Origin: an uncultured Bacilli bacterium
Lineage (GTDB): Bacteria; Bacillota_I; Bacilli_A; RF39; UBA660
Reading direction: 5' to 3'
Assembly (NCBI GenBank): GCA_934085675.1
Contig: CAKOHH010000004.1
Location: forward strand, 9,709 to 73,708
Length of the DNA: 64,000 nucleotides
The position numbers and the translations under genes are program-made. Position 1 is the stretch's first letter; every line of letters begins with the position of its first letter. The notes under the pieces were generated by a model that worked only from the letters and a program-made list of their open reading frames with translations, ran no database searches and was not told where the DNA came from. This document shows, in pieces, positions 5,033 to 57,507 of this stretch.

Positions 5033-5856
5033 TTATCATAATCATCCAAAAAGGAATGAACTTCACTACCCTCACGATAACCTAAAACACAATCTAAATT
5101 AATATTACTCATACTTTTAAAAATATTGTAATCAATATCTTTATTTATTTTTCGTAAATTTTTAATAAGTTCTTTAATCTCTTTGCGCTTACTCGTCCCA
5201 TCATTAATTAAGGAACATCCTTCAGTAAAGCGACAAGCACAATTAATAAAAGTAAGTTCATTATAATTTTTCCAAGAAATAATATCTTCTTCATGTATAT
5301 GATACATTGGTCTAATAAGTTCAATCCCAGAAAAATTATCACTATGTAATTTCGGCATCATTGTTTTTACTTCACAACCGTAAAACATAGAAAGAAGTGT
5401 TGTTTCAATGACATCATCAAAATGATGGCCCAGACTTATTTTATTACAGCTTTTTTCTTTGGCGTAGTTATAAAGGTAGCCTCTTCGCATGCGTGCACAT
5501 AAATAACAAGGACTTTTGCCAGGATACTTTTCGACAACATCAAAAATATCTGATTCAAAAATTTCAATTGGCACACCTAATATTTCGGCATTTTCTTTAA
5601 TTTTATTTAAATTATAATCATTATAACCAGGATTCATAACAACAAAACAAACTTCAAAATTAATTTGCCCATGTCGTTTTAATTCTTGAAATAATTTAGC
5701 CATCAAAAAAGAATCTTTACCACCACTGATACAAACCATAATTTTGTCATTTTCTTTTACTAATTCATAATCTTTAATGGCTTTAATAAATCTTGTCCAA
5801 ATTGTCTTACGATATTTTTTTATAATACTTCTTTCAATTTCTTTTGTTTTATCCAT
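5014..5856 (-). CDS. PP-loop ATPase, TtcA-like tRNA 2-thiocytidine synthetase family
   Basis: 280 aa with the SGGKDS PP-loop motif and Cys clusters (CYLCARMRRG, CACR) typical of TtcA. Confidence 0.6.
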   Translation of the reverse strand: MDKTKEIERSIIKKYRKTIWTRFIKAIKDYELVKENDKIMVCISGGKDSFLMAKLFQELKRHGQINFEVCFVVMNPGYNDYNLNKIKENAEILGVPIEIFESDIFDVVEKYPGKSPCYLCARMRRGYLYNYAKEKSCNKISLGHHFDDVIETTLLSMFYGCEVKTMMPKLHSDNFSGIELIRPMYHIHEEDIISWKNYNELTFINCACRFTEGCSLINDGTSKRKEIKELIKNLRKINKDIDYNIFKSMSNINLDCVLGYREGSEVHSFLDDYDNKKNEM

Positions 5857-6960
5857 CTAAATCACACTTTCTAAAACGGTAATTAGTTTATCTAGTTCCT
5901 CTTTTGTTGTCAAGTAAGATAGACTAACTCTTATGGAAGAAGAAGCTAGGCGTTTATTTTTCGTTAAAGCATAGACAAGTTTAGATGGTGTATTTAAAGG
6001 GCAGCAACTTGTTTTAGCCGAAACAATAATTCCTTTTTCTTCTAATAAGGAAACTAGGTCATTCGCATTCATTTTTAACACACTAAAATTCACAAAGTAA
6101 ACTGATGAACGAGAGGTATTATTGATGACAATATCTTTTTTATTTTTTAAATAATCTAACAGATAAGTTTGTAATTCTAATACATAAGAATGGTGTTTAT
6201 TTTGTTCTTCTAAGGCCAGTTTTAAAGCCGTATAAAAAGCAACAATATTAGGAAGTATAGGTGTACCACTGCGATAGTTTGTTGTACTTCTTCCCCCGTG
6301 AAGTAAAGGGACTAATTCTACATTTTCTTTTTTTATAAGAATAGAAGTGCCATCTAAGCCACTTAATTTATGAGCAGAAATGGTTGCTAAATCAACATTT
6401 GTAAAATTAAAAGGTTCTTTACCTATTATCTGAGTCGCATCCGTATGAAAATAAGTATGAGGATATTTTTTTAACATTTTACCGATTTCATCAATAGGTT
6501 CTACAATACCAAGTTCACTATCCATCGCGGTAACACTTACAAAAATTGTATCCGGACGAAGTCTTTTTTCAATCTCAAAAGGCGTAATAATTCCCTCTTC
6601 ATTTACAGGAACCACTTCTATCTCAAAACCTTTTTCACTCATGTAAGTTAAAGGACTTAAAATAGAAGAATGCTCTAAACTACTTACCAATATATGTTTG
6701 CCAAAGTTTTTGTATCTTTCTAAAATACCTTTGACTGCTAAATTATTAGATTCGGTAGAACCAGATGTATAAATAATTTCATCAGGTAAAACACCTAATA
6801 AATCAGCTATTTTTTTAGTAGTATCTTGAATTTTCTCATTTGCTTTTGTTCCTAAAATATGGTTAGAATTGGGATTAGCAAAATCTTGGCATGCCATAAT
6901 AAAACTATCTAACACTTCTTTGCGGACCAATGATGCCGCGGCATAATCAAAATAAATCAT
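5857..6960 (-). CDS. cysteine desulfurase (class V aminotransferase, NifS/IscS-like)
   Basis: 367 aa with aminotransferase-V fold signatures, the PLP lysine in SAHKLSG and a conserved Cys near the C-terminus; adjacent to the TtcA-like gene. Confidence 0.7.
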   Translation of the reverse strand: MIYFDYAAASLVRKEVLDSFIMACQDFANPNSNHILGTKANEKIQDTTKKIADLLGVLPDEIIYTSGSTESNNLAVKGILERYKNFGKHILVSSLEHSSILSPLTYMSEKGFEIEVVPVNEEGIITPFEIEKRLRPDTIFVSVTAMDSELGIVEPIDEIGKMLKKYPHTYFHTDATQIIGKEPFNFTNVDLATISAHKLSGLDGTSILIKKENVELVPLLHGGRSTTNYRSGTPILPNIVAFYTALKLALEEQNKHHSYVLELQTYLLDYLKNKKDIVINNTSRSSVYFVNFSVLKMNANDLVSLLEEKGIIVSAKTSCCPLNTPSKLVYALTKNKRLASSSIRVSLSYLTTKEELDKLITVLESVI

Positions 6961-14335: not shown

Positions 14336-15400
14336 TTATTGAATTTTATTTTTTAGAGATTCTATAATTTTTATAACATCATCAACAGAAAATCCTTTTT
14401 TATCATCATATTTATTTGTATATGTATTTTGAACTTGACCAAACATTTTTATAGATAAAGTTTTCTTTATTTCTTCTCTATTTTCTGGTTCCATATTTTC
14501 TAAATAAACATCAATTGAAGCAAGTTCCAGTTCCTGTTTTCTATAATATACTTCATCTTTTCTAGAATTTGAAGCTTGTTTTGCTGTATATGTAGCAGCA
14601 CCCATTAAAATAGCACTTACTATATATTTAAATATAGTAAATTTATTATAATCTTTTGAAGTTATAGTCACATAAAGCATTAATCCAAATGCTATTAAAA
14701 ATAATATAATAGTTATCACTTGCCATACTATTCTTTCATTATGCGACATATCTGCATTTTTCTTATATTCACTAATTCTAGCTTTTTCCTCAACAATTCC
14801 TATTAATTTTGAAATTTTTTTATCTTTTTCAGCAATAATTCTTAGCAATTCTTCAAATTTGCTTTTATATTCTTCAGATAACGTATTAAAATTATCCATT
14901 AATTCTTTTTTGCTATTATCTTTTAATTCATCTATACTATTTTTTTCAGTGGTAATTATTTCATCTATATTTCTCTTTGATTCATCGATAAATTTATCTA
15001 CATTATGTTTTAAATCAATTTGATTATTATTAAGACTATCAAGCTTATCATTTACTTCTTTTATTTTATTATTTAATTCTGTATTTTCTTTCTCTATATT
15101 ATCCTTTTGTTGCTTTATATAGCCTAATATATCACTAACTTCATTTTCAAGATTACTACTTTGTTTTGTTATTTCATATTTATAATTTCTAATATAGTTT
15201 TTTATGTTAGATTTATTATTTAATATCATATTAAAATCAATATATTTTAATAAACTTTTAATTATTGAATCACTGGTAGTCAACATATTTGATATATAAT
15301 CGCTATTACCTTGCAAAAAGTCATTACAGTAACTGTTAAAATTATTATAGTCATTGCTTATATCATCAGATATTAATTCTTCATCTATATTTTCAACCAT
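14336..15400 (-). CDS. coiled-coil protein with C-terminal transmembrane segments
   Basis: 354 aa: a long Asn/Lys/Glu-rich coiled-coil region followed by two predicted TM helices (IVWQVITIILFLIAFGLMLYV, IVSAILMGAATYTA). Confidence 0.5.
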   Translation of the reverse strand: MVENIDEELISDDISNDYNNFNSYCNDFLQGNSDYISNMLTTSDSIIKSLLKYIDFNMILNNKSNIKNYIRNYKYEITKQSSNLENEVSDILGYIKQQKDNIEKENTELNNKIKEVNDKLDSLNNNQIDLKHNVDKFIDESKRNIDEIITTEKNSIDELKDNSKKELMDNFNTLSEEYKSKFEELLRIIAEKDKKISKLIGIVEEKARISEYKKNADMSHNERIVWQVITIILFLIAFGLMLYVTITSKDYNKFTIFKYIVSAILMGAATYTAKQASNSRKDEVYYRKQELELASIDVYLENMEPENREEIKKTLSIKMFGQVQNTYTNKYDDKKGFSVDDVIKIIESLKNKIQ

Positions 15401-44810: not shown

Positions 44811-46589
44811 TTACACATATTCCTCTTTCCAATGGATTATAGTATTGTTTATACACTCGTTCCATTGCTTGTATGAATCCAAACTTAATGTATTTTTGTG
44901 AATATCTCTTATTAATTCAACAAAGTATTTTATATGTATGTTTTTAGCATATATAAAACTTATCATGTCACTATATTGTTCAATTGTTAATGGTATTACA
45001 GGAACTGGATTACCCATCCAACTTTCCTTGTTTAAAAGGAAAAATTGCCAATCTGTTCTTTTATTTATAGAATTAGAAATAAATAATCCGTACACTTCTT
45101 TACCAGCATCTTGATCTATGAATTTCATAACATGATCAATAACACTAGAGCCTTCGTGTTCCCATTGTTGTACTCCACTCATAAGTGATACCTCCGGTAT
45201 TAAAATAGTGTCATTATAATAAAGTTCCATATCAGGTGTATTATTTTTACCTGGAGCAAAACTTTTAGGAGTTAAATCTTCTTCTACATCAAAATTTCTA
45301 ACAACATTTTGATTACCATCTATAGCTACTAAAGACTTCCATGTATTACATTCAAGCCATAATGCAGCCATATCTTCGCTCTCTCTTGATTTAATAGAAT
45401 CGAATCTATCAGTAATTTCTTTCCTAGTATCTTCATTTTTAGAAGTATATTTAATAAAGATTTCTTCATTCAATGTAGTTAATTTAGTAATTAATTCTTC
45501 TTCAAATAATTTTAATTCTGTTGAACTATCCATTGAATTGACTTTAGAATATAATTCTGCAGAATCTAATTCAATCTCCAATTCATATTTTTCATTAAAT
45601 ATATGAATAGTTTTATCTAATAAATTAATCTTATCAACTAATAATGATTTTCGATCATCCTTATTTTCCCAAGGAAGATTTATATTATCCGGATTACCAT
45701 ACCATTCCATATAAGCGTCAAGATTATCATTATTGATAGTTATAAATGAATATTTGCTATTAATTAATTCAACCTTTTTCTTAGAATGTTCAGCAATTCT
45801 AACCTTTTTATATAGTCCTCTACCAGAAATATCAAATAATCTAGTAAAATCAAGGGCTCTCATAATAGAATCTATATATGACAAAGGATCACCTTTATAA
45901 AGTTCTTTCACATAATCAAAATATTCTTTTGCATACTTATTGAAGATTTCTTTACATTCACTAGATTTCATTTTATTATCTAGCGCATTATAGTCTGCTC
46001 TAAATTTTTTTATAGAATTTGCCAAAGAATCATACTGAGATATATCATTACATAAGAAAATATATGCCAATTCATATCCATTTAAGTATTCAAGATCTAG
46101 TAATAATTTGATTATTATTTGTAATGGAAAAACTCTATTTCCATCTTTTATATCACGTCCGTAATTAGTGCATACAGAAGGAAAATTTATTTTTAAAAGT
46201 TGTTTTAAAAATAATTCACTATCAAATTTACCTTCTGAAATTAGTTTTCCTGCTTTAGTAACTCTAATTAATCCTTCATTATCAATATATCCAAATCCAT
46301 AAAATTTATATGTAGCAAGATCATTTCTAGCATTACTTTCAGAATCTGCTTTACCATCTTTAGTACCATTTAGATAATCTTCATAAGATAAACCATTAAT
46401 AGGAGAATCCTCTTCCTCTAGTTGTGCATCAAAATAATACTTTCTTCTAATTGGGTGAATCTTTATATTATTTGCATCAAGCTTATTAGCTGTATAATTC
46501 CAATTTTCATTTTCTAAATTTGAAAAATATTTAAACCATTGAACTGTTTTAATTACACTTCGTGGTTTATTTCTCCAGCCCCAACTCAT
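44811..46589 (-). CDS. AlwI/BstNBI-family type IIS restriction endonuclease (or nicking enzyme) homolog
   Basis: 592 aa. The segments YKFYGFGYIDNEGLIRVTKAGKLI...FLKQLLKINFPS and the C-terminal NTPDMELYYNDTILIPEVS match my recollection of N.BstNBI/RE_AlwI-family enzymes. It lies immediately downstream of a DNA MTase. Confidence 0.55.
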   Translation of the reverse strand: MSWGWRNKPRSVIKTVQWFKYFSNLENENWNYTANKLDANNIKIHPIRRKYYFDAQLEEEDSPINGLSYEDYLNGTKDGKADSESNARNDLATYKFYGFGYIDNEGLIRVTKAGKLISEGKFDSELFLKQLLKINFPSVCTNYGRDIKDGNRVFPLQIIIKLLLDLEYLNGYELAYIFLCNDISQYDSLANSIKKFRADYNALDNKMKSSECKEIFNKYAKEYFDYVKELYKGDPLSYIDSIMRALDFTRLFDISGRGLYKKVRIAEHSKKKVELINSKYSFITINNDNLDAYMEWYGNPDNINLPWENKDDRKSLLVDKINLLDKTIHIFNEKYELEIELDSAELYSKVNSMDSSTELKLFEEELITKLTTLNEEIFIKYTSKNEDTRKEITDRFDSIKSRESEDMAALWLECNTWKSLVAIDGNQNVVRNFDVEEDLTPKSFAPGKNNTPDMELYYNDTILIPEVSLMSGVQQWEHEGSSVIDHVMKFIDQDAGKEVYGLFISNSINKRTDWQFFLLNKESWMGNPVPVIPLTIEQYSDMISFIYAKNIHIKYFVELIRDIHKNTLSLDSYKQWNECINNTIIHWKEEYV

Positions 46590-46598
46590 ATAAACCTC

Positions 46599-47717
46599 CT
46601 AAAAATCATAATTAGTGATCAATAAATGTTCAACATCTTTATCATTTCTATTCATAAAACTTACTAAATATTTTTTATCAAACGATTCTATATTAAATCC
46701 TCTATCTTTATATAAGTCATATATAAAATCTGTATTTTTTATAATTAACATAAACTTAGCTTTTGTTTTTGATAAGTAATTTGCTAATCTTATTTGATCA
46801 TCTTTATCAAAATCATTTTTTGCATATGTAGAAAATTCAGTATCGTATGGAGGATCTAAAAACATGAAATCATTCTCTGTTAATTCTACTTTGTTACAAA
46901 AAACTTCAAAATCATAATTACATATTTTTGTTTTACTCATATATTTATTTAATTCATCAGAAGATACATAATCTATCTTTTTAGTAAAGTCTTTTCTGTT
47001 ATAACTGATTCCACCATAAGGTACATTAAATTCACCATTAGCATTATATCTAAACATAGATGCATAGCAAAAATCTCTAACAAAATAAAATACTGCGCAA
47101 TAGAATTCATCACTTAACTTCAATTTTTTCTTATTATTATAAAGGTATCTAAAATACATATAGTAAGCGCTTTTAAAGGCACACTCAATATTACTCATTA
47201 TATCGCTTACATTCATTTCATTTCGTTCAAGCTCAATTTTTTTCATTCTGTTTAATTTTGATATTAAATTCTTCTTAACTTCTTTAATAAAATTATATAA
47301 ATTAATATCAAAATCTTCTTCTAATAGACTATTTAATTCTTTAGTATGTTTTTCAACAAACTTTTCCACTAATTCATCAGCACTATTTTTGTTACTTTTA
47401 ACTTTATCATAAATATCAGATAATTCATTTGTATTATCTTCAACCAAACGTTGAAGCGAAATCCAATTCTTATTTATTTGATTTAAGCTATCAATAAAAC
47501 CTTTATCATGTTTTTTTATCATTTTATAAAGTAACATTAATTCATCAGATTTATCATTAATAACCGAATTTTCACAATTTATATTTAGATATACTGCTCC
47601 TCCACCTACAAATGGTTCAACATATCTATTAAAATTTTTAGGCAAGTTTTTTAAAATTATTGGCAGTTCTTTTTCTTTACCACCTGCCCACTTAATAAAC
47701 GTCTTTCTATTTTGCAT
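46599..47717 (-). CDS. Dam-like (alpha-class, D12) N6-adenine DNA methyltransferase
   Basis: 372 aa with FIKWAGGKEKE (motif X/I region), EPFVGGGAV (SAM binding) and DPPY (motif IV) in alpha-class order. Confidence 0.8.
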   Translation of the reverse strand: MQNRKTFIKWAGGKEKELPIILKNLPKNFNRYVEPFVGGGAVYLNINCENSVINDKSDELMLLYKMIKKHDKGFIDSLNQINKNWISLQRLVEDNTNELSDIYDKVKSNKNSADELVEKFVEKHTKELNSLLEEDFDINLYNFIKEVKKNLISKLNRMKKIELERNEMNVSDIMSNIECAFKSAYYMYFRYLYNNKKKLKLSDEFYCAVFYFVRDFCYASMFRYNANGEFNVPYGGISYNRKDFTKKIDYVSSDELNKYMSKTKICNYDFEVFCNKVELTENDFMFLDPPYDTEFSTYAKNDFDKDDQIRLANYLSKTKAKFMLIIKNTDFIYDLYKDRGFNIESFDKKYLVSFMNRNDKDVEHLLITNYDF

Positions 47718-47733
47718 ACAGTATCCCCCAATC

Positions 47734-48573
47734 TTAATTTATTAAATCTATATATATAGTTTTACCATCGTATTTCCAAACAGACTTAGATGGATTAAAT
47801 ACATTATCTTTAGTTAATAATCCATATTTTCTGTACATTTCAGTTATTCCTTGTGAAAAATATCTTCTATCTGAACTTATCCTTACATCTTTAATATCAT
47901 TTCCATTAAAGCATAAATCGAATTTATCACAGTCAGAAGGCAATTCATCAAATATTGCACGAGGAATACTAATAATCCTAGCTCTTATATCATTTGCGGT
48001 AATATCTTTTTCAATATCACTGACAATATATTCATTAGCATTATCATCAACAATATTTTCAACAACAGAATTCTTTTTATAAAATTTATTTAATTCATCA
48101 TAACTAAATACTGGTTTATATACAAATCCAATATTATTTTCAATACAAATATCAACTAGCATTTTTCCGTCAATTAATACAATTGGTCTGTCATCACTTG
48201 TTTCTGCTTTTAATTTGGCTGGGCTAGAGAACATAGCAGTAGTAATAACAATTCCTTTTTCACCAGATGTCATATTACCTCTTAGCTTATCTATAATATC
48301 AACAGATATTTTTTCGGATGGTTTAAATCTTTTAGCTTGTACGATATATTTTACAGAATCATCATTATTATTGATAACACCATATCTTATGCCTTCCAAA
48401 TCAACTCCACCATCTCCAGAACGTTTTGTAACTCTTACTTCATCTAATCCAAGACATTCCAATAATGGTTTTAAAAAATCTTCAAAATCATATCCAGTTT
48501 CAAACGATTTATATAATGCTTCAAGTATTGCTTCCTTTTCTTTTTGATCTAACTCAATCTTTTTCATACACAA
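47734..48573 (-). CDS. Mrr_cat (PD-(D/E)xK) restriction endonuclease domain protein with an unknown C-terminal domain
   Basis: 279 aa; the N-terminal ~150 aa match Mrr_cat (FEDFLKPLLECLGLDEVRVTKRSGDGGVDLEG...YIVQAKRF...GIVITTAMFSSPA); the C-terminal ~130 aa are uncharacterised. Confidence 0.65.
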   Translation of the reverse strand: MCMKKIELDQKEKEAILEALYKSFETGYDFEDFLKPLLECLGLDEVRVTKRSGDGGVDLEGIRYGVINNNDDSVKYIVQAKRFKPSEKISVDIIDKLRGNMTSGEKGIVITTAMFSSPAKLKAETSDDRPIVLIDGKMLVDICIENNIGFVYKPVFSYDELNKFYKKNSVVENIVDDNANEYIVSDIEKDITANDIRARIISIPRAIFDELPSDCDKFDLCFNGNDIKDVRISSDRRYFSQGITEMYRKYGLLTKDNVFNPSKSVWKYDGKTIYIDLIN

Positions 48574-48576
48574 CTC

Positions 48577-49101
48577 CTATATATCTTTAGGCAACTTACT
48601 GTAATCATATTTAGTTGCTATCTCTTTTAATTCTTGTATTTCTTTATCAATATCTTCTAATGCTTTATCTAATGTATAATCGGTTTCTGCGGCCTCTTTT
48701 ATTAATCTTAAACCTAATTTTATTTCATTTAAGTTTTGCATTATCTTTAATGTTTTTTTTCTTTTATTAGCATCCCAATCTAAAATATCGTATTTAAATA
48801 ATCTACATTCTTCTATAGTATTCTTTAAATCTTTTGTAGATTTATTTTTAAACTCATCATGAGAAAACCAACTCACAACTTCATTATAACCAGCAGCATT
48901 TAAAAGCTGTTGTAATGATAAATCTAATTCTTCTGCAATTCTTTTCAAAATTTCTGGATCTGGTTTAGCTACTCTACCATTTTCTATATCATTTAAAGAA
49001 GAATTACTTATTCCAACTCTTCTTGCAAGTTCTCTTTGAGAATACTCTTTTGCAGTTCTTCCTCCAACAATTAATGTAGTTAATGCTTCACTATTGTTCA
49101 T
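48577..49101 (-). CDS. XRE-family HTH transcriptional regulator (candidate controller or repressor of the R-M operon)
   Basis: 174 aa with an N-terminal HTH (SQRELARRVGISNSSLNDIENGR) and a C-terminal helical domain ending KYDYSKLPK; first gene of a 4-gene minus-strand operon. Confidence 0.7.
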   Translation of the reverse strand: MNNSEALTTLIVGGRTAKEYSQRELARRVGISNSSLNDIENGRVAKPDPEILKRIAEELDLSLQQLLNAAGYNEVVSWFSHDEFKNKSTKDLKNTIEECRLFKYDILDWDANKRKKTLKIMQNLNEIKLGLRLIKEAAETDYTLDKALEDIDKEIQELKEIATKYDYSKLPKDI

Positions 49102-49229: not shown

Positions 49230-50625
49230 TAGATTTTTATTGAAAGTGCACAATTAATGTGCAATAAGTTTAAGAAACATATATAATATCTTCTTAAGCA
49301 ATTTGTTTGTCATTAAGGAGGTATTGAAAATGACAAATTATTCTCATTTGTCTTATGAAGATAGAAGAAATATTGAAGATGGATTAAATGCAAATAAATC
49401 CATAAATCAAATTGCTAAAGAATTATGCAGAAATCATTCTACAATCTTAAGAGAAATAGATAGAAACAAAAAATATTCGGAACCATCAACCTGGAACAAT
49501 TATAAAATTACTCATCCGGATTTGGATTTGTCTTGTGAAAGATTAAAACATTCCCCTTATGTTTGTAATGGTTGTAAATCTAGAAGTGGCTGTCGAAAAA
49601 TTAGATGGACTTACTATGCTAGAGAATCTCAAAAATCATATGAAGAATTAATTAAATCTTGTAGACAAGGTGTTAATCTAACTTTAGAAGAAATACATGC
49701 TATTAACGAAACTATAACTCCTCTTGTCAAAAAAGGTCAGACAACTAATCATTTGTATATTAATCATCCTGATATTTTAGATTTCAGTAAAAGTTCTTTT
49801 TATCGTTATATTAAAGATGGAATTTTTGAATTTGGTCCTTTAGATTTTCCAAGAATTGTTAAATATTAAAAAAGAAAAAATTCAAGTCAAAGAAGAACAA
49901 GAAAAGAACGTGAAATACTGATTAATAGAAAATATACTGATTTTATCGAATTTATTTCTAACAATCCAGATTTAAATATTGTTGAAATGGATACTGTTGA
50001 AGGTCTACAAACAGAATCCGATTGTTTCCTTACATTACTTTGGAGAAAGTCTAAATTAATGCTTATATTTAAATTAGAATTCCAAATAACGGATGAAGTA
50101 ACAAGAATTTTTGAAACATTACAAGTTCTTATTCCTTTAGATATTTATAAAATATTTATTTCAAATCATTCTTACTGACAATGGTCACGAATTTTTTGAC
50201 GTTAGTAATATTGAATGTATCCATTCAACGGGTGAATATGTCACTCATCTATTTTTTTGTGATCCACATGCTTCTAGTCAGAAAGGAGCCATTGAAAAAA
50301 ATCATGAATTCATTAGATATATTTTACCTAAAGGTTCCTCTTTCAAAAATATTACTCAGGAAGACTGTCATCTAATTATGAATACTATTAATTCATTATG
50401 TAGAGATTCATTGAATGGTAAATCACCTTATGAAGCAATGCTATTTTTATGTAGTGAAGATAATTAAAATTATTAAATTGTTATTATATTGAACCTGATA
50501 ACGTTAATTTAACAAATAATTTATAAAAGCAAAAATAATTATGGCTCAAACTATAATTATTCCTACGACAAACAAGTTGCCAAAAATCCAATAATTTGTT
50601 TTATGTAGGCGTTGTGCACTTAGTT
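49230..50625 (+). mobile_element. IS30-family insertion sequence, decayed
   Basis: Contains a disrupted IS30-type transposase gene, flanked by imperfect inverted ends sharing agtgcacaa (49240s and reverse complement at about 50600). Confidence 0.55.
49303..50470 (+). pseudogene. IS30-family transposase, disrupted by a stop and at least one frameshift
   Basis: ORF1 carries the IS30 N-terminal HTH (LSYEDRRNIEDGLNANKSINQIAKELCRNHSTILREIDRN). Later frames carry DTVEG...LLTLLWRKSK and TDNGHEFF...KSPYEAM (DDE region) split across frames. Confidence 0.6.
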
Positions 50626-50770: not shown

Positions 50771-51860
50771 TTGAGTCGTAATGCACATAATTATGCACTT
50801 TATTTAGAATTCAACGGTGTATATAAAACTAAAGATGGTAAGATATGGTTTTATAAGACTCAATATGAAGATATTGATGGAACTCATAAAACTAAGAAAT
50901 CAGGTATATATACAACTAAAAAAGAAGCAGAAAATGCTGAGTTTGAATTTAAATTAAAAATATGAGAATATGAGAATATGAGAATACCAATAATGTGACT
51001 TTTGAAGAAATGATTAGAATGTTTATTGATTTTAGAAAAGATAAAGTTAAGGAAAACACATTATATGTGTTATAACAATAAATTACCTTATTTAAAATCA
51101 CTATATAAAGTTAAACTTAAAGATTTTAACTACCCTCCTTTTGAAAGATGGCATGATGAAATAAATAGTACTCATCTTGCTACAAGAACTAAGAATAACA
51201 TTTATAAAATATTAAAAACTATTTTAAATTATGCTACTGCATGGCATGATTTTATCTTTGCTAAGGCATATCCTAAAATGTATAACTTTAATGATCCTAA
51301 TGAATTCCCTAAAGAACAATTATTTTTTACTTACGAGGAATTCAGATAATTTTTCTCCGTTGAAACTGATATCAAATGGGTCGGCATTTTTGAAATATTA
51401 TATTACTGTAGATTAAGACGTGGTGAACTTAGAGGATTACAATGAAAAGATATCTATTTTAAAGATAGAACATTAAGTATATCCAAACAAATTAATGACC
51501 GCTGTGGATCCGTTAAAAATTGGTGATTCTCAGTTTCAAAAACTAAAAGTAGTAATAAGAATATTAAAGATGCCACAAGCCCTCGCAAGCGACCTTAAAG
51601 CAATGAAAAACAAGGCAGAAAAGATACCTAGATTCAATGATAATTTCTTTGTCGCAGGAGATATGCTTCCTGTATGTAGCAATACACTTACTAATCATAA
51701 AAATGCTAATTGTAAATTAGCTAATGTTAAACAGATTCGATTACATGATTTCAGACATTCTTGTGCATCTCTTCTGGTTAATAAAGTTGCTAATGTTCAT
51801 GTTGTAGCAAAATACTTAGGACATACAAAAGTTGAAGAAACATTAAAAACTTATTAACAA
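50771..51860 (+). pseudogene. tyrosine recombinase/phage integrase, decayed (multiple frameshifts, TGG to TGA, lost C-terminal Tyr motif)
   Basis: The N-terminal arm-binding-like ORF, the core-binding segment (VTFEEMIRMFIDFRKDKVKENT..., KLKDF...WHDEIN) and the catalytic C-terminus (IRLHDFRHSCASLLV...AKYLGHTKVEETLKTY*) lie in three different frames. GLQ(TGA)KDIY sits where the W of GL.W.D is expected. Confidence 0.65.
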
Positions 51861-51948
51861 CTATTTACAAGTACTTTGGACGAAGTAGTTGCCATAATAG
51901 ATAATTTAGATAATTATAAAACCGATGATAATTAGTCACCGGTTATTT

Positions 51949-53388
51949 TTATACTTTAGACACTATTAAACTTGTTTTTTCTTGAAGTACATTTAAAAAT
52001 TCTTTGTGTGCATGTTCATAACATTTTAATGCTCTAATTATATCTGCATCTGTTATTGGTAAAATCAAACCATGCTCATCTAAGTAGGTATCTGCACAAC
52101 TATTAATAAACTTATCATACTTTTCAATTGTCCTACACGATAATATACCAATTTGTCCTCTTCTGGTGCTAAATCTTCCAAGCAATTGATCTAATTCTGG
52201 ATTCTGTGGATCATTTTTATAGTTTTTACATTCGACTATTATTTGTAGGCTTGTCATCTTAATCTTATCTGATATTACTGCAAAATAGCCCTCTTCAGCT
52301 ATATTGGAAAAAATAATATCAATTCTTTTTCTTCCCTCATGGATTTTTTCCTCTTTTCGTGGATTAGATAAATCTGGATAAGTTAAGAACTCATATATTC
52401 CTATCATTAAGTTATGATAATCAGAAGCACTATCTGTTCCAACTGGAATGGACTTTAATTTTTCTATCATAAAATTAGATACATCTTCATAATTAACCTC
52501 AGTCAATAGTTCTCCATTCATACAATTAGTATTCTTGTTTTTACTCTTAAAATCATTAAAAATTTCTGGGTGTTTAACTGTAAAATCCAAGATATATTTT
52601 TTATCCATTACTGGTTCTTTTTCAATAATAGACTTTTTTGTAACATATCTTTCTTTTGTTGTTTTTCTAATTTTTACCAAAGATGTTTCGTTTTCAATAT
52701 TTTCCTTTTGTAAAAAGTTTAAAATAAAATGTTGTCTATATTTTGATGGTGTATATGTTTCACAGAAGCTTATAATTGATTTTGGTACTAATAATACAGG
52801 TGTATTATCTACTACCAACCTATCAATATATTTGTTTTCCCATTTGTGGGTTTCCATATTCCAACAATACCCTGATGGTACATTTTTAGTAAGAAGAATA
52901 TTATTTAACTCACATTGTTCAATTGTATATTCTAAGAGTTTTATTCTGATAATATTTGTTATTAAATCTGACAATTTATCTCTGTCTATATTTTCAATAA
53001 ACATTCTCAAATCCTCAATATTTTCTAATACACCATATTCTATAGCCTTACTATTCTTTAATTGTGTAAAAATATCCAAGGTACCACTTTGTCCAATACC
53101 TTTCCCTCTTGATTTATTCTTTGATAATCCAAGATGTGTTTCATTTACTTCGCCTATTCTGGTACAAATCATTCTTGCTTTATCATCCATATTGTTTTTT
53201 AACAAACCAATTAAATATGAGAAGAAATCTTGTAACAAGTCGTTACATGCCACTGTAAAATCAGAGTTACATTTTGCTATTAACGTTGAATCAACAAATA
53301 AAGGAATATCTTTTTCAGTATCAATATTTACAAAATCTAATTCTAATTGTGTTTTATTCAAATTATAAATATTACTAATTGTTGCCAT
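51949..53388 (-). CDS. hypothetical protein with a C-terminal PD-(D/E)xK nuclease-like domain
   Basis: 479 aa; the C-terminal ~130 aa show GRKRIDIIFSN...LQIIVECKNYKN...QIGILSC, consistent with a restriction-endonuclease-like D...(D/E)xK core; the N-terminal 340 aa are unassigned. Confidence 0.5.
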   Translation of the reverse strand: MATISNIYNLNKTQLELDFVNIDTEKDIPLFVDSTLIAKCNSDFTVACNDLLQDFFSYLIGLLKNNMDDKARMICTRIGEVNETHLGLSKNKSRGKGIGQSGTLDIFTQLKNSKAIEYGVLENIEDLRMFIENIDRDKLSDLITNIIRIKLLEYTIEQCELNNILLTKNVPSGYCWNMETHKWENKYIDRLVVDNTPVLLVPKSIISFCETYTPSKYRQHFILNFLQKENIENETSLVKIRKTTKERYVTKKSIIEKEPVMDKKYILDFTVKHPEIFNDFKSKNKNTNCMNGELLTEVNYEDVSNFMIEKLKSIPVGTDSASDYHNLMIGIYEFLTYPDLSNPRKEEKIHEGRKRIDIIFSNIAEEGYFAVISDKIKMTSLQIIVECKNYKNDPQNPELDQLLGRFSTRRGQIGILSCRTIEKYDKFINSCADTYLDEHGLILPITDADIIRALKCYEHAHKEFLNVLQEKTSLIVSKV

Positions 53389-53389
53389 A

Positions 53390-54016
53390 TTACCTCACTT
53401 TTGACCACTGACAATCATCATCTTCTGGAATTTGATCTATACTAGTAGGTCTTATTATTTCATTAACTTTATATAGTTCCATTAACATATCCTTAGTTTC
53501 TTCAATGGAAATATTAAAATTATTAGCAATTTCTTTAGTAGTAGTAGCATAATTCATACAAATATATTTATATATTTCATCTAAATTAACTATACTTGAA
53601 CTAATTAACTGTGATTCCCCTGTTTCTAAATAATTCAAAAAATTAAGTGTATTGATTATGCAATTGACAACATATAAAGATTCCTCATTTGATAAAACAT
53701 TATTATCATGTGCATAACTTTTATTATTTCTTATATCATTAAACTTTTCAAAAATGGATATAGATTGTTTTAATGCTTGAATACTAAATTCACTAATTTG
53801 ATTTTCACTTGAATAATACTTTATTAGCATGCCCATTAAACTATGTAAAGGTAGTCCTTCATTTTTATCATTTAAAATATCAATATTATGCAATAAACAA
53901 TAACTTCTAATTTTTTTGATAGTAAAAGTATGTAATCGATCTAATGCAAGTACCGCTTCACCATCTGCTAAAGATTTTCTTATGTCTTTCTTTAATTTTT
54001 CCAATTGTGCATCCAT
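53390..54016 (-). CDS. HEPN-motif protein with a C-terminal winged-helix-like domain
   Basis: 208 aa; DIRNNKSYAHDNN gives an R-x6-H HEPN-type motif within a helical N-domain; the C-terminal YATTTKEIANNFNISIEETKDMLMELYK looks like a wHTH. Its stop overlaps the start of 51949..53388. Confidence 0.5.
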   Translation of the reverse strand: MDAQLEKLKKDIRKSLADGEAVLALDRLHTFTIKKIRSYCLLHNIDILNDKNEGLPLHSLMGMLIKYYSSENQISEFSIQALKQSISIFEKFNDIRNNKSYAHDNNVLSNEESLYVVNCIINTLNFLNYLETGESQLISSSIVNLDEIYKYICMNYATTTKEIANNFNISIEETKDMLMELYKVNEIIRPTSIDQIPEDDDCQWSKVR

Positions 54017-54032
54017 GTAATATCCTCCTTAT

Positions 54033-54052
54033 AAAAGAAAAAATTCTATACT
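54033..54052. promoter_or_regulatory. 20-bp perfect palindrome (candidate operator) just upstream of the HEPN operon RBS
   Basis: ctatactttaaattgtatag is a perfect palindrome, about 10 nt upstream of the aaggagga RBS of 53390..54016. Confidence 0.35.
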
Positions 54053-54193
54053 TTAAATTGTATAGAACTCTATGATTACATTATACTACTTTATCTCTCA
54101 AATGTCTGCAATAATCATGCAATTTTAACAAAAATTGTTCCCGAGTTGTTCCCAAGAATTATTTTCAATTTTACATATGCCCGCAAACCCTTA

Positions 54194-54224
54194 TAAAATG
54201 GGCATAAAAAATGAGAGCACGGTT
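54194..54224 (-). terminator. rho-independent terminator for 54387..55244
   Basis: Minus sense gagagcatttaaccgtgctctc followed by attttttat. Confidence 0.5.
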
Positions 54225-54386
54225 AAATGCTCTCTTCAGGGGGAAAATTATACCCTGATTTTTTGTCATATTTTTCATTATTATTGATTTATCACTTGCT
54301 ATATTTCTCGTAAATAGCCCTATTTTACCTATCAAGACCTATGTAATTGTTCCCCATTTGTTTCCAAAAAAGCCATTACATATTAG

Positions 54387-55244
54387 TTATTTACTACCCA
54401 ATATATCTGCTATTATCACTTTATATTTACTTTTGTTTATTTGACAATCTAATGCTTTAGTTAATTCTTTTATATCTTCTTCAACTAAGTCTTTTTTATC
54501 TATTAAAGTTTCATATACTACTTTTATCTTTTCTTGATTTTCGATTATGTATTTATTATTTGTATCATAATAGAAATATCTTTTAATAAAACTTTTGCTA
54601 TCTTTTACATCATTGATATAGTAAGTAATATTCATCATATTTACATATGTACATAAATCTATTAAATTTAAATCAAACTTGCTTTCGTCATTACCTATTT
54701 TTTTATTTAGAAAATTTAAATACATATATTCTATTACTAACATCATATATTTTAGATTCCCTAACAAATAGTTTTTATACTTAAATGTTTTGTTCATGTA
54801 CGATACAAGTTCTTTTAGACTACATGGATGAATAATTTTGCAAAGGTATTTATATATATTATTGAAATCTTCTGGTTCAAAATAATCTGTAAATATTAAA
54901 CTGCAATTTTCTACTAATACTTTACGTAATTCTCCTGATGATGTATCTAAAGTAGTTTTGATTTTTTTGTCATATGAAGTTGCAATTATATAAATAATAT
55001 TTTCATACAATGTTCTTAACACTGTAGCAGCATTTAATAAATCCTGTCTATTAATTAATTCATTTACCAATTCAAAATCTACTTTCACCTTTTCATATGT
55101 AGGTTTTGAATTTGTATATTTACTTATCTTTTTAAATTCAAAACAATCAATTTCGTCACTAAAAACATAGTTAGCACAATTTAATAATTTCATACATTTC
55201 TTGTAATCCTTCATCTTCTTAATAAACAAACTTGCATTAGCCAT
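54387..55244 (-). CDS. hypothetical protein
   Basis: 285 aa with a good RBS (aaagaggtgaaatt); Tyr/Asn/Lys-rich, no recognisable domain. Confidence 0.45.
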   Translation of the reverse strand: MANASLFIKKMKDYKKCMKLLNCANYVFSDEIDCFEFKKISKYTNSKPTYEKVKVDFELVNELINRQDLLNAATVLRTLYENIIYIIATSYDKKIKTTLDTSSGELRKVLVENCSLIFTDYFEPEDFNNIYKYLCKIIHPCSLKELVSYMNKTFKYKNYLLGNLKYMMLVIEYMYLNFLNKKIGNDESKFDLNLIDLCTYVNMMNITYYINDVKDSKSFIKRYFYYDTNNKYIIENQEKIKVVYETLIDKKDLVEEDIKELTKALDCQINKSKYKVIIADILGSK

Positions 55245-55276
55245 AATTTCACCTCTTTTAAGTATCTATTATACAC

Positions 55277-55302
55277 TAAAAAAGCCTGGATTTTACCAGG
55301 CT
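55277..55302 (-). terminator. rho-independent terminator for 55417..56562
   Basis: Minus sense gaagcctggtaaaatccaggctttttt. Confidence 0.6.
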
Positions 55303-55416
55303 TCTAATTATTACAGGTCAAAGACATAAAACCAAAATGACACAATGACGTATTGTTTGTGAGACCCCTACTCTCACTTTTTATGTCATAGTGTCACTTC
55401 CTATTTATATATTTGA

Positions 55417-56562
55417 TTAATCATTATTTTTTTTGCTATTAAAATCTATTTTTAATATTTTATATTTATCATTTTTTAAAATATTAATATCATTAGTCGG
55501 AAAAATTTTAGATTGCTCATTACCAAACAATGAATTTAACATAATTTTTTTCACTTCTAGATAATGCTTTCTTTCAGCAATAGAGTTATTTATCGTAAAT
55601 GTCACAAAATCACCATTGGCATCATCTAAATCTTTTATATCAATGCCTTGTATTATATCTTGATATATTTCATTAGAAATACCATCATAATAAGCAAGTG
55701 TTTTATCAATACCTAACTGTCTTGCTACATAATATAAAATATCTGTTTCAGTCATTATACTATCCGCATTTTCCATATAACTATGAACTTGTTCAATCAT
55801 ATCATTGTATCTTTTTCTCTCTTCTTGTTCATTATAATTTTCCCAATTATTAATTACATCTGATATTTTATCTGAAAAATCTGATAATAATTCAATATGC
55901 GTACTTATATATGAAGATAACATATGATCATACATACCAAGAAAATTTATCATATAATTATTTATTCCTTGTAATTCAATATCTTTAGCATTTTTAAATT
56001 TACTATGTAATAATTGTTCAAGATTAATATCGTATTCAATAAATATAGCCTCAATAGTTTTTTTTGCAAAATATTTTATAACAATATCACTTGAGTTATA
56101 TAGATCAAACATATACAAAAAACCCATTCCTACTTCTCTAGAATAATCATCATCATTTTGTTTAGCCTTACATATTTCTATTCCTAATCTTTTACTAAAG
56201 AAAATAGTGTCAACTATCATTTTATATTTTGTAGCTTTTTCATTATCTTTCTTTAATGTTAAATCTAACATAATTAAAGCCAATTCTATTCTTTCTAATG
56301 AGTCACCTACCTCCTTTAAATATTTATCTGCAATATCTGTAATAAATTTTAAGTCGTTATTATAGGCTAAAACCATAAATTTGACCATTTCATAATCTTT
56401 TTTTACTTTTTCAGAACATAAATTATAGATTTTTTTATCATTTGTTTCTTTTATAACTTGAATCATAAAATCTTTATCATCTTCTAATTCTTCTATTTGA
56501 TAATTTTTGATATCTTCACCTTTAATATATTTATTAATCAATTCTTTACTATATTTTTTCAT
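55417..56562 (-). CDS. hypothetical acidic protein
   Basis: 381 aa; 15 bp downstream of the sigma-like gene, so probably cotranscribed with it; no motif recognised. Confidence 0.45.
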   Translation of the reverse strand: MKKYSKELINKYIKGEDIKNYQIEELEDDKDFMIQVIKETNDKKIYNLCSEKVKKDYEMVKFMVLAYNNDLKFITDIADKYLKEVGDSLERIELALIMLDLTLKKDNEKATKYKMIVDTIFFSKRLGIEICKAKQNDDDYSREVGMGFLYMFDLYNSSDIVIKYFAKKTIEAIFIEYDINLEQLLHSKFKNAKDIELQGINNYMINFLGMYDHMLSSYISTHIELLSDFSDKISDVINNWENYNEQEERKRYNDMIEQVHSYMENADSIMTETDILYYVARQLGIDKTLAYYDGISNEIYQDIIQGIDIKDLDDANGDFVTFTINNSIAERKHYLEVKKIMLNSLFGNEQSKIFPTNDINILKNDKYKILKIDFNSKKNND

Positions 56563-56577
56563 TATAAAATCCTCCTA

Positions 56578-57507
56578 TCATATATAGTTCCTGATTTTTG
56601 CACTTCTTCTTAAATATCTTAATGATTTTGCTTCTATTTGTCCTACTCTTAATTTTGTTAAACTATGTCTCTTCCCAACCATTTCCAACGTTTCAGGTTT
56701 TCCACTATCTAATCCAAATCTTTCATGAATAATAGATTTTTTTCTTTCATCAATAAGTACACTATCAACATCTTTTTTAAACTTTTCATTATAAATTTTT
56801 TCAATTACTTTATCTTCATAATTTATCTCATCCTTAAAGTTATTATTTAATCTATCAAACATACCAATATTAATAATAACTCTAATAAATTCATATATTT
56901 TTGTTTTTGCTATATTTAAAGTACATTCGTTTTTTATATTTAAATTTGTATAAATTTTATCTAATAATGGAATTACATTTTCAACATCTATAGTACGATA
57001 ACAGAACCAGTTGTTATATTCTTTACATTTTGATATAAAATCATTAGCATTAAAATTTTTTCCACTATTTTTTAAATAGATATAACTGCTCAATAAAGCA
57101 ATTAAACACTCAGTAGAAATACCAAACTGCTCTTTAATCACTATTTCATCCCCACATAATTTTTTATATACTTCGCTAAAAAATGAAGTTGTAAAAATAT
57201 TTGAAAAACTGTCAACTTTTAATAAATCGCCATTATATATTTTATTAATCCAAACTTCATTAAAAGAACTAATAATATCATCCATATCAAATGAAAAAGA
57301 ACAAAACATTTCAATATCATTTCTTTTTATATAATCATAAACAACATAAAGTGTTCCTAATATGATTTTATCCATATATATTTTTTTAATATTAATATCA
57401 CTAGACATATTAGCTTTCTTGTATAATTCTTTTGTTTCTTCAATCTTTAATCTTTCAATTGAAGATATTTTTTTTTGCCATTTTTCTAATTTACTAATGT
57501 TCTTCAT
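56578..57507 (-). CDS. divergent sigma-70 family RNA polymerase sigma factor
   Basis: 309 aa. The C-terminal ERFGLDSGKPETLEMVGKRHSLTKLRVGQIEAKSLRYLRR is a clear sigma-70 region 4. The N-terminal KIYMDKIILGTLYVVYDYIKR...DMDDIISSFNEVWINKIY resembles region 2. Confidence 0.6.
   Translation of the reverse strand: MKNISKLEKWQKKISSIERLKIEETKELYKKANMSSDINIKKIYMDKIILGTLYVVYDYIKRNDIEMFCSFSFDMDDIISSFNEVWINKIYNGDLLKVDSFSNIFTTSFFSEVYKKLCGDEIVIKEQFGISTECLIALLSSYIYLKNSGKNFNANDFISKCKEYNNWFCYRTIDVENVIPLLDKIYTNLNIKNECTLNIAKTKIYEFIRVIINIGMFDRLNNNFKDEINYEDKVIEKIYNEKFKKDVDSVLIDERKKSIIHERFGLDSGKPETLEMVGKRHSLTKLRVGQIEAKSLRYLRRSAKIRNYI

Follow-up and report, generated by a model that had tools for sequence, protein, structure and literature searches.

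One promoter, two predicted nucleases: a probably modular stack of putative defence genes for a HEPN protein and a DUF8370 nuclease in an uncultured Bacilli bacterium

Do two closely packed genes that encode a predicted RNase and a predicted DNase make up one two-component immune system, or are they separate genes that share a promoter? The question is raised by a locus within a 64,000-nt stretch of DNA (hereafter, the window) of an uncultured Bacilli bacterium, where an original prediction made from the letters alone saw an overlapping gene pair and proposed a candidate undescribed system of phage defence. Both genes, here called A and B, are present in the open reading frame listing at the places and lengths given to them (Table 1). 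They do not overlap, however: the TAA of A (53392-53390) and the ATG of B (53388-53386) are separated by the single base 53389, i.e., a 1-nt spacer. The defence-island and mobile-element setting of the locus is real, and the flanks hold what had been described there, i.e., a decayed integrase, an IS30-type HTH fragment and R-M genes (AlwI-like REase, Dam-class MTase and an Mrr_cat protein). The integrase remains consist of an Arm-DNA-bind_4 N-terminus, a middle piece and a Phage_integrase C-terminus, and the gene is intact (373-374 aa) in two related loci (L007 and L012). DNA common to the window, L005, L007 and L012 reaches down to 50828, and at its upstream end (54243-54252) similarity to the window stops at 54252 for L005 and at 54243 for L007; att-like direct repeats were looked for around this 3.4-kb shared segment and no convincing one was found. 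The terminator scan returned four terminator-like sites against 0.5 expected, and the hairpin upstream of A, ~10-20 nt inside the upstream end of the shared segment, is kept in L086 and L090 with compensating changes in the stem. Purifying selection acts on both genes, with dN/dS values of 0.16-0.27 (A) and 0.07-0.23 (B).

Table 1 Features of the A-B locus, in coordinates of the window
Feature	Position	Strand	Basis
Gene A, 208 aa	53390..54016	(-)	ORF; HEPN + wHTH
Gene B, 479 aa	51949..53388	(-)	ORF
B N-terminal domain, residues 1-295, DUF8370 core	52504..53388	(-)	PDC-M36A + PF28123
B C-terminal PD-(D/E)xK domain, residues ~300-479 + stop codon	51949..52491	(-)	fold + motif
SD AAGGAGG of A	54024..54030	(-)	sequence; kept in leader alignment of related loci
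Inverted repeat TTCTATAC-N8-GTATAGAA, then T-run; between -10 box and RBS	54044..54067	(-)	arms 100% complementary
Sigma-70-like promoter, CAGACA-17-TATAAT	54080..54108	(-)	10/12 matches; best match of a promoter scan that overall was not above chance
Tandem GGGAACAA-N3-GGGAACAA, ~120-140 nt 5' of A start codon	54133..54158	(-)	repeat search
Terminator-like hairpin, 3' of B, end of A-B operon	51920..51944	(-)	terminator scan
Terminator-like hairpin GAGAGCA...TGCTCTC + T-run, closes upstream transcription unit	54213..54234	(-)	terminator scan
Decayed tyrosine integrase, convergent with B, 3 ORF fragments	50771..51857	(+)	profile matches + shared DNA

Profile and fold searches upheld the reading of A as a HEPN protein with a winged helix. 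Residues ~1-135 are an Abi_C-type HEPN domain, with the four-helix HEPN fold seen in the fold search, and residues ~143-208 a winged helix-turn-helix. The protein matches PF14355 (Abi_C; E 7.6e-9, 36 bits vs a cut-off of 24, residues 59-127), a domain carried by all A homologues among the matches listed; a sequence search against the PDB gave no significant match. The HEPN motif DIRNNKSYAHDNN is present as predicted and has the Rx4-6H form with a polar residue after the arginine (R96-N97-x5-H103, with R96 encoded at 53731-53729 and H103 at 53710-53708); across 25 homologues there is no variation at R96, N97, S100, A102, H103, D104 and N105. By these signatures A is predicted to be an AbiJ/SadR-type Abi_C HEPN RNase with inverted domain order. 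SadR, experimentally shown to be a single-gene ssRNA RNase defence, requires its RN...H motif (PMC13590631), and A shares with this group the Abi_C profile, the HEPN fold, the R-N-x5-H arrangement with the commonest spacing of the family and a gene location in defence or mobile-element islands; PADLOC misses it, as has been reported for all Abi_C proteins (PMC13590631). It differs in that the HEPN domain stands at the N-terminus, with a winged helix at the C-terminus in place of the sensor domain that normally comes first (AbiJ has an AbiJ-NTD-type domain before the HEPN, whereas in A the HEPN comes first), and in that A mostly heads an operon and is not a lone gene. Relatives of 250-280 aa have a ~125-aa N-terminal domain with the HEPN at the C-terminus, and the 208-aa architecture forms a small clade (~30 clusters at 90% identity) whose members of known source come from metagenome assemblies of the gut, the rumen and the like. 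The interest of A lies in a validated Abi_C RNase domain re-used, in inverted HEPN-wHTH order, at the head of variable, putatively defensive operons.

For B, the same kinds of search confirmed the predicted PD-(D/E)xK nuclease. Its C-terminal domain has a restriction-endonuclease-like fold, and D357 (52320-52318), E386 (52233-52231) and K388 (52227-52225), i.e., a complete D...(D/E)xK triad, are invariant in 43 sequences. The fold matches listed for B are restriction or defence nucleases, FokI-type enzymes among them; they align over lengths of the size of the C-domain, and none is at E<=1e-3 in Foldseek. With B as a whole as the query, none of those listed falls to the N-domain, for which no solved homologue was recognisable. 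A sequence search against the PDB was likewise without significant match, Pfam Mrr_cat (PF04471) stayed below threshold (E 0.038, 14.5 bits vs a cut-off of 21), and a marginal likeness of residues 62-124 to the lambda-cI HTH (profile vs PDB, E 0.24) was taken as noise. The N-domain, modelled with a pLDDT of mostly 80-93, is strongly conserved across phyla, and its invariant residues include many glycines and acidic ones. B homologues carry PF28123 (DUF8370) in precomputed annotation, and B itself matches the PADLOC candidate PDC-M36A (PDLC04597, E 4.9e-43, residues 4-250; PDLC04598, E 9.3e-14). The family comprises at least 1208 clusters at 50% identity in many phyla, annotated uniformly as "hypothetical". 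The description of the pair as undescribed holds just in part: A falls into Pfam Abi_C and the AbiJ/SadR family, and B belongs to a large family known just as a candidate PADLOC entry, of which the A-B locus is a compact, natively promoted example.

A literature search on PDC-M36 and DUF8370 yielded no paper text, just a supplement line defining the cassette. PDC families (Payne et al., bioRxiv 10.1101/2024.01.29.577857) were nominated for embedding in BREX, DISARM or type I R-M, and PDC-M36 is a three-gene cassette, FAM_01399>>FAM_00303>>FAM_00303. B is alike in that it matches both PDC-M36A models and that some DUF8370 members lie inside type I R-M; it differs in that the DUF8370 gene is solitary in most genomes. 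A PADLOC scan of nine window genes (A and eight others) matched no other PDC-M36 model, and other PDC-M36 components were absent from the 25 families most matched by 139 neighbours of DUF8370 genes and from the partners in relatives, a comparison in which the FAM identifiers were not mapped to the A/B letters.

Comparison with other genomes did not bear out the proposal of a conserved toxin/effector system of two genes. A stands upstream of the DUF8370 gene in just 2 of 84 DUF8370 loci, both of them near-identical relatives of the window (95-98% identical), and more than 95% of the sampled DUF8370 genes are without an A-like or HEPN partner. Across the same 84 loci (Bacillota, Bacteroidota, Pseudomonadota, CPR and others), no conserved neighbour of B emerged. 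In close relatives each gene also occurs without the other. B is found without A in L006 and L012, as X-B under the same promoter as in the window (in L012 the promoter is 93% identical to that of the window), with X, a 255-aa family unrelated to A, standing where A would be. A is found without B in L086-89, L094, L095 and L209-214, and in L095 it is 1 of 208 residues off the window copy, with a deletion that runs from B codon ~28 through the integrase. Because each occurs without the other, A and B are probably two separate anti-phage genes on one promoter. The single-gene SadR is a further argument for this, as an example of Abi_C proteins working by themselves. Identities to the window are 99.8% for A and 94.4% for B in L007 (nucleotides), 67% and 87% in L085 (amino acids), and ~55% for A and 26% for the B N-domain in L090, figures that show different histories of A and B, without co-divergence. 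The explanation that we favour, with a probability of roughly 60%, is that, beside a decayed integrase, a conserved promoter and leader drive a stack of defence genes that varies in composition and whose members act independently. The series A-B, X-B, A-X-B, A-X and A-deltaB constitutes a natural deletion set, which argues for modular, independent action; it is from this presence and absence that we infer independence.

Downstream of A, the related loci differ widely. X follows in L086-88, X and then B in L085, a divergent DUF8370 nuclease (B2) in L090, a 416-aa coiled-coil/TM protein and then an integrase in L212-213 and, across an intergenic gap, a Schlafen-like protein (L209-211) or a NERD-HRDC protein (L089); directly upstream of A in L086 are an AbiN-like gene and UzuA (E 1e-77), and L001 contains DarT/NADAR and Fic. 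A-B (1 nt), A-X, X-B and A-B2 are all closely packed and the order is always A, X, B. The same tight packing and fixed order would be expected of a functional complex. It could be explained by a two-component system, in which A is a sensor, a regulator or a second-line suicide module and the downstream effector is interchangeable, i.e., B, B2, X, the membrane protein and perhaps the gap-separated Schlafen-like and NERD proteins. This would suit the first place of A ahead of many different effector-like genes, as well as the published idea that a HEPN RNase serves as the suicidal back-up to an associated DNase (PMC3710099). A HEPN-DUF8370 partnership that recurs could be read from the occurrence of A before two deeply diverged DUF8370 nucleases, together with an unrelated Sulfurovum genome (L051) where 3 nt separate a DUF8370 nuclease gene from the ZnR-DUF4145 HEPN gene upstream of it. 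Nevertheless, we judge a two-component system unlikely, given the mass of DUF8370 genes without such a partner, the X-B loci on the same promoter, the intact A of L095 after deletion of B and the missing co-divergence. Moreover, the L051 partner is built like RAZR, a described zinc-finger RNase immunity protein with the same zinc ribbon and DUF4145 HEPN make-up (PMC13017515).

A bolder proposal, which we hold to be rather improbable, makes A (or X when A is absent) the leader sensor or licensing module of one promoter cassette with plug-in effectors, i.e., DUF8370 nucleases, the membrane protein, a reverse transcriptase, type I R-M and perhaps the gap-separated Schlafen-like gene. The DUF8370 N-domain would in addition represent a new fold, of a sensor or an enzyme, and nuclease-less copies on small Bacillus plasmids would be decoys or inhibitors; were it true, the locus would represent a two-layer immune operon of the plug-and-play type. 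We regard it as highly improbable that A and B are a toxin-antitoxin or addiction module, in which one protein neutralises its partner and the pair stabilises the integrative element: single genes are intact in close relatives (L012 and L006 without A, L095 without B), both proteins are effector-like, no MNT domain was found in A, B or the flanking ORFs, as a HEPN-MNT toxin-antitoxin pair would have, and no other antitoxin-like partner is present.

HEPN RNase genes beside REase-type genes are a known theme of defence loci (PMC3710099), with operons and fusions such as DUF4145-REase and the wHTH-HEPN-REase protein EC042_2821 (Anantharaman et al. 2013, PMC3710099). The A-B locus likewise unites a HEPN RNase, a restriction-fold DNase and a winged helix without a methylase; it differs in that A (Abi_C) and B (DUF8370) are two separable proteins in facultative association. 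The A-B locus opens no new category of immunity.

The part that the stacks have in common is the promoter and leader. What had been described as a 20-bp perfect palindrome is in fact two 8-bp perfect arms (54044-54051 and 54060-54067) with an 8-nt spacer; as RNA, the stem extends to 11-12 bp (-13.3 kcal/mol, z -3.7). All A-led operons have this inverted repeat between the -10 box and the SD, where it would serve either as a hairpin or attenuator of the leader RNA or as an operator, and the TATAAT box is conserved across an alignment of 10 loci. The repeat invites the view that A is mainly a transcriptional autoregulator, with its winged helix on the inverted repeat at the transcription start, its HEPN domain a ligand or RNA sensor and B the sole effector. 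We regard this as improbable, since the repeat persists in X-B loci without A, even at 80% promoter identity (L006), and since the catalytic R-x6-H and RN dipeptide of A are invariant, as in active Abi_C RNases. In addition, among the 11 consensus pairs of the hairpin (two with compensatory changes), the G-U-compatible changes, along with a loop that varies from ~6 to 10 nt, favour an RNA hairpin over a dimer operator. Farther upstream, the tandem GGGAACAA motif has a second copy at 54345-54370 (85% identical), and TTGTTCCC occurs five times in the window vs 0.99 expected. The tandem motif was found 5' of the first gene of A- or X-led operons in 15 loci (the same locus being sampled repeatedly in places), in L006 its sole match lies elsewhere in the locus, and beyond these sites there was none in 1.95 Mb of retrieved loci; the motif may bind a regulator or serve as an arm-type site for an integrase.

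The surroundings of B in other genomes bear on what it does. B-family genes stand as solitary genes in mobile-element, R-M or defence settings, and the adjoining genes in 77 DUF8370 loci are a mixture of integrases, resolvases, type I S subunits (directly ahead of the DUF8370 gene in L029 and L037), GmrSD, Mrr, Schlafen and DarT. As integrases and resolvases are the commonest neighbours, and as N-domain-only DUF8370 proteins occur on small Bacillus plasmids, one of them directly after rep, B could be not an immune protein but a mobile-element nuclease or DNA-processing protein, e.g., for integration, replication or homing. Against this, no recombinase is a fixed partner, such neighbours being found on both sides and both strands, DUF8370 genes also sit inside type I R-M and beside GmrSD, Mrr, DarT and Schlafen genes, the cleavage domain is of the FokI/Mrr type found in restriction enzymes, and DUF8370 had no match in 50,697 GenBank phage genomes; such a role therefore seems very improbable to us. 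No conserved methylase neighbour was seen across the 84 loci, which speaks against a Type II/IIS R-M system, and the methylase of the window is part of a separate AlwI/Dam unit 4 kb from A-B. In fold and D...ExK triad the C-domain of B is like those of FokI, Nt.BspD6I, the LlaBIII nuclease domain, MspJI and AspBHI, and like type IIS and type IV enzymes B combines an N-terminal recognition module with a C-terminal cleavage module, in common with the latter without a cognate methylase. Its N-domain is unrelated to FokI recognition domains and SRA-like readers and, unlike specificity domains, is highly conserved across phyla, a pattern more in keeping with a conserved ligand or enzymatic site than with DNA-sequence recognition that varies. 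Shedu (SduA) likewise unites an N-terminal regulatory domain and a PD-(D/E)xK nuclease in one polypeptide; however, B has no DUF4263 or PADLOC Shedu match, its nuclease is nearer to FokI/BspD6I and its N-domain is a different one. Since no cognate methylase travels with it, B may act in the manner of type IV enzymes or Shedu.

Taken with the favoured reading of independently acting genes, these features allow a mechanism to be sketched. We postulate that the A-B operon forms the end of a small defence islet linked to an integrase, in a low-GC gut Bacilli ("Tenericutes") bacterium. A cassette of tandem GGGAACAA motif, -10 box, hairpin and SD would drive A and B there and, in related genomes, a varying string of one to three immunity genes. 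Upon infection, a HEPN dimer of A with a composite R96/H103 site would degrade RNA and abort the infection, and the winged helix could sense nucleic acid or autoregulate the operon. The N-domain of B, for its part, would recognise an invader-specific ligand or DNA feature and thereby license the FokI/Mrr-like C-domain to cut DNA.

Further observations concern the partners of A in related loci. Conserved flanks suggested that in L006 and L012 X had replaced A in an exact exchange of cassettes; L085 (A-X-B) and L086 (A-X) instead show the L006/L012 state to be one of differential loss from a longer array. X has an invariant RN...RH motif, which raised the idea of a cryptic HEPN; the hhalign probability (A2 vs A3) was below 1%, and a profile search of X against the PDB gave no match. 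The C-terminus of B2 in L090 matched nothing in Pfam or the PDB and, read by eye (GRGPVDYKF...LIEFK), looks like a divergent PD-(D/E)xK domain.

The two minus-strand genes, a 208-aa HEPN-wHTH gene (gene A) and a 479-aa DUF8370 nuclease gene (gene B), belong to a locus that is very probably immune-related, and our analysis supports a conserved promoter/leader driving a stack of separable defence genes, variable in content, at an integrase-linked hotspot. Both open reading frames are present and co-oriented exactly where the original prediction had placed them, but the overlap claimed for them is refuted, as the gene A stop (TAA, 53392-53390) is followed by 1 base and then the gene B ATG (53388-53386). 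By sequence inspection, GAGG lies 4 bases 5' of this ATG; the SD sequence of gene A is AAGGAGG. A terminator scan gave four terminator-like sites against 0.5 expected.

Coordinates of the operon, its surroundings and related features (window positions unless a fetched homologous locus, L, is named)
Feature	Position	Strand	Details
Gene A ORF	53390..54016	minus	208 aa
Gene B ORF	51949..53388	minus	479 aa
Terminator-like hairpin	54234-54213		upstream of promoter
Terminator-like hairpin	51944-51920		after gene B
Inverted repeat	54044-54067		arms TTCTATAC / GTATAGAA, 8-nt separation
Leader hairpin + U-run	54017-54078		just 5' of gene A SD sequence
Tandem GGGAACAA-N3-GGGAACAA motif	54133-54158	minus	promoter region; second half GGGAAC
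Second copy of tandem motif	54345-54370	minus	212 nt from first
Tyrosine integrase	50771-51857		3 ORF fragments
IS30-type HTH_38 fragment	49303-49869		188 aa; adjoins broken integrase
Separate restriction cluster	44811-49101
AlwI-like REase	in 44811-49101		592 aa
D12/Dam-class methylase	in 44811-49101		372 aa
Mrr_cat protein	in 44811-49101		279 aa; matches PADLOC PDC-S02 and type IV mREase models
HTH_3 protein	in 44811-49101		174 aa
285-aa gene	within 54387-57507	minus	weak DUF5677 match
381-aa gene	within 54387-57507	minus	weak DUF4116 match
309-aa gene	within 54387-57507	minus	Sigma70_r4; C-terminus similar to PADLOC MzaA
Family X	L006 and L012, 5225-5992
Family X	L085, 841-1599
Family X	L086, 8631-9395
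Nuclease-less DUF8370	L202, 2434-3456		B. cereus plasmid pMRY14-0100_7
Nuclease-less DUF8370	L204, 8004-8951		B. amyloliquefaciens plasmid

Gene A matches Pfam Abi_C above threshold (E 7.6e-9) and, weakly, a FaeA-type winged helix (residues 146-189), and R96, N97, S100, A102, H103, D104 and N105 are invariant across 25 full-length homologues; thus, the HEPN plus wHTH assignment was correct. The motif spacing, R-polar-x5-H, is the commonest reported among Abi_C proteins (PMC13590631). The domain architecture is unusual within this family: in the many "abortive infection family" relatives of 250-280 aa, similarity is confined to residues ~2-132 of gene A, and their HEPN region is C-terminal, after a ~125-aa N-terminal domain, i.e., opposite to gene A. 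Gene A is most likely a predicted AbiJ/SadR-like abortive-infection RNase. SadR functions as a single gene, for which the RN...H motif is needed (PMC13590631).

The PD-(D/E)xK nuclease call for gene B is upheld by the invariance of D357, E386 and K388 (n = 43 sequences) and by the fold matches listed, which comprise FokI-type and other restriction or defence nucleases and whose aligned lengths correspond to the C-terminal 180 residues. Local Pfam gave Mrr_cat alone, below threshold (E 0.038); the newer family PF28123 (DUF8370) is present in all gene B homologues. The confidently modelled N-terminal 295 residues have no recognisable solved homologue among these listed matches, and in a sequence search this domain alone as query retrieved at least 1208 clusters at 50% identity (E ≤ 1e-3); among the top matches, 90 of 96 full-length proteins carry the same nuclease domain and six have other C-termini. 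The pair had been mapped to no named system, and PADLOC placed one half of it, gene B, as a candidate PDC-M36A (PDLC04597, E 4.9e-43, residues 4-250; PDLC04598, E 9.3e-14, residues 128-471), while no model matched gene A, consistent with the published statement that all Abi_C proteins go unrecognised by PADLOC (PMC13590631). PDC-M36, one of 145 "guilt-by-embedding" candidate systems, is defined by the cassette FAM_01399>>FAM_00303>>FAM_00303 (bioRxiv 10.1101/2024.01.29.577857). Gene B is most likely a putative stand-alone nuclease without methylase, in which the conserved N-domain would control cleavage by a FokI/Mrr-like domain, much as in type IV restriction enzymes or Shedu.

Scanning a one-genome-per-species collection for gene B gave 448 matching stretches, and 80 loci from many phyla were retained. 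By tblastn and HMM, gene A occurs in these solely in L005 and L007, whose gene B is 95-98% identical to that of the window. No other neighbour family recurs at a fixed position across the B loci, and the nearest neighbours (77 loci) are mixed: integrases, resolvases, type I S subunits, GmrSD, Mrr, Schlafen, DarT and KilA-N. L006 and L012 have gene B behind X, an unrelated ~255-aa family, under the same promoter (identity of the L012 promoter to that of the window, 93%) and lack gene A. From the side of gene A, A-B is found in the window, L005 and L007 (= L093), and A-X-B in L085; elsewhere gene A precedes X and methylases (L086-88), a DUF8370 protein only 26% identical to gene B in its N-domain (L090-92), a 416-aa coiled-coil/transmembrane protein and then an integrase (L212-213), a Schlafen-like protein (L209-211), NERD-HRDC (L089) or unknowns (L214, L094). 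In L095, where gene A differs from the window copy by 1/208 residues, gene B is deleted together with the integrase and a repressor-like gene, and its first ~28 codons now continue in frame into the part encoding the C-terminal 201 aa of a gene that normally sits past the integrase (5629-6303). Divergence of the two genes is discordant (nucleotide identity to L007, A 99.8% and B 94.4%; amino acid identity to L085, A 67% and B 87%), and both are under purifying selection (dN/dS 0.07-0.27). Conservation of the pair is thus limited to a few near relatives, and a dedicated HEPN plus DNase two-gene system, as originally predicted, is unsupported, since each gene occurs apart from the other.

A cooperative arrangement is nonetheless a possible reading, given the tight gene packing, the repeated placement of gene A as first gene and one independent adjacency (L051): the RNase encoded by gene A would back up, or license, effectors that can be exchanged, a role already proposed for HEPN-REase loci (PMC3710099). 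The L051 case (5225-5992) comes from a Sulfurovum MAG, where a protein combining a zinc ribbon with DUF4145 (HEPN) ends 3 nt 5' of a DUF8370 nuclease gene; its make-up is that of RAZR, a zinc-finger RNase immunity protein (PMC13017515). Neighbourhoods of HEPN and REase are a published theme, and Abi_C and DUF8370/PDC-M36A are already catalogued. The new elements are the inverted HEPN-wHTH architecture of gene A, the widespread DUF8370 N-domain without assigned fold or function, and a modular islet (integrase-linked, with promoter, A and B) carrying a conserved leader.

The "20-bp perfect palindrome" reported in this leader does have perfect arms, though of 2 x 8 bp with an 8-nt gap. Folded as RNA, it gives a stem of 11-12 bp with a U-run behind it (-13.3 kcal/mol, z -3.7), and it is conserved among related loci with two compensatory pairs and variable loop length. 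As the hairpin is retained even in relatives without gene A, an attenuator or RNA element is more likely than an operator bound by A. The tandem motif (minus strand at the window copies, TTCTTGGGAACAACTCGGGAACAATT) precedes the first gene of A- or X-led operons in 15 fetched loci, and in 1.95 Mb of fetched DNA the other copies are one elsewhere in L006 and one more in the window. This motif may bind a regulator or be an arm-type site for an integrase.

The segment from terminator to integrase (54252-50828) is 94-96% identical to L005 and L007. Directly 5' of it in L007 and L095 lies recG, as is also the case for numerous operons headed by A or X (L086, L090, L206, L212), and at its other end L007 has an intact tyrosine integrase and an S24-type repressor-like gene. 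L007 and L012 encode the full-length integrase (373-374 aa); in the window it is broken into three ORFs with an IS30-type fragment alongside, which suggests that the islet is immobilised. Past it come the IS30-type HTH fragment, an HTH_3 gene, an Mrr_cat protein, a Dam-class methylase and an AlwI-like REase, so the predicted mosaic-island setting of decayed integrase, IS30 and R-M genes was borne out. In L086 (6296-7644), an AbiN-like gene (208 aa) and a UzuA homologue (246 aa, E 1e-77) sit immediately 5' of A-X; together with the other loci, this suggests that, in this lineage, the region downstream of recG is a hotspot for defence genes. Three minus-strand genes 5' of gene A in the window are not found in the relatives' islets.

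Family X, which the window lacks, is an uncharacterised candidate for a defence gene (~254-255 aa, 39 clusters at 90% identity), with an invariant FRN-x5-RH motif and no match in Pfam, PADLOC or PDB. It sits between A and B or in place of A, and is also found alone, ahead of a reverse transcriptase or ahead of a type I R-M system.

The 416-aa coiled-coil/two-TM protein of L212 (4637-5887) is 39% identical to a window ORF (14336-15400, minus) and may represent a membrane effector family. The DUF8370 protein behind the gene A homologue in L090 (8645-10105, 486 aa) has a different C-terminus (precomputed Pfam match DUF8371) with, by eye, a divergent PD-(D/E)xK motif (GRGPVDYKF...LIEFK). Nuclease-less DUF8370 N-domain proteins (~315-340 aa) occur on small Bacillus plasmids (4.6-15 kb), in one case directly after rep; they retain the conserved acidic and glycine motifs and might be decoys, inhibitors or have autonomous activity.
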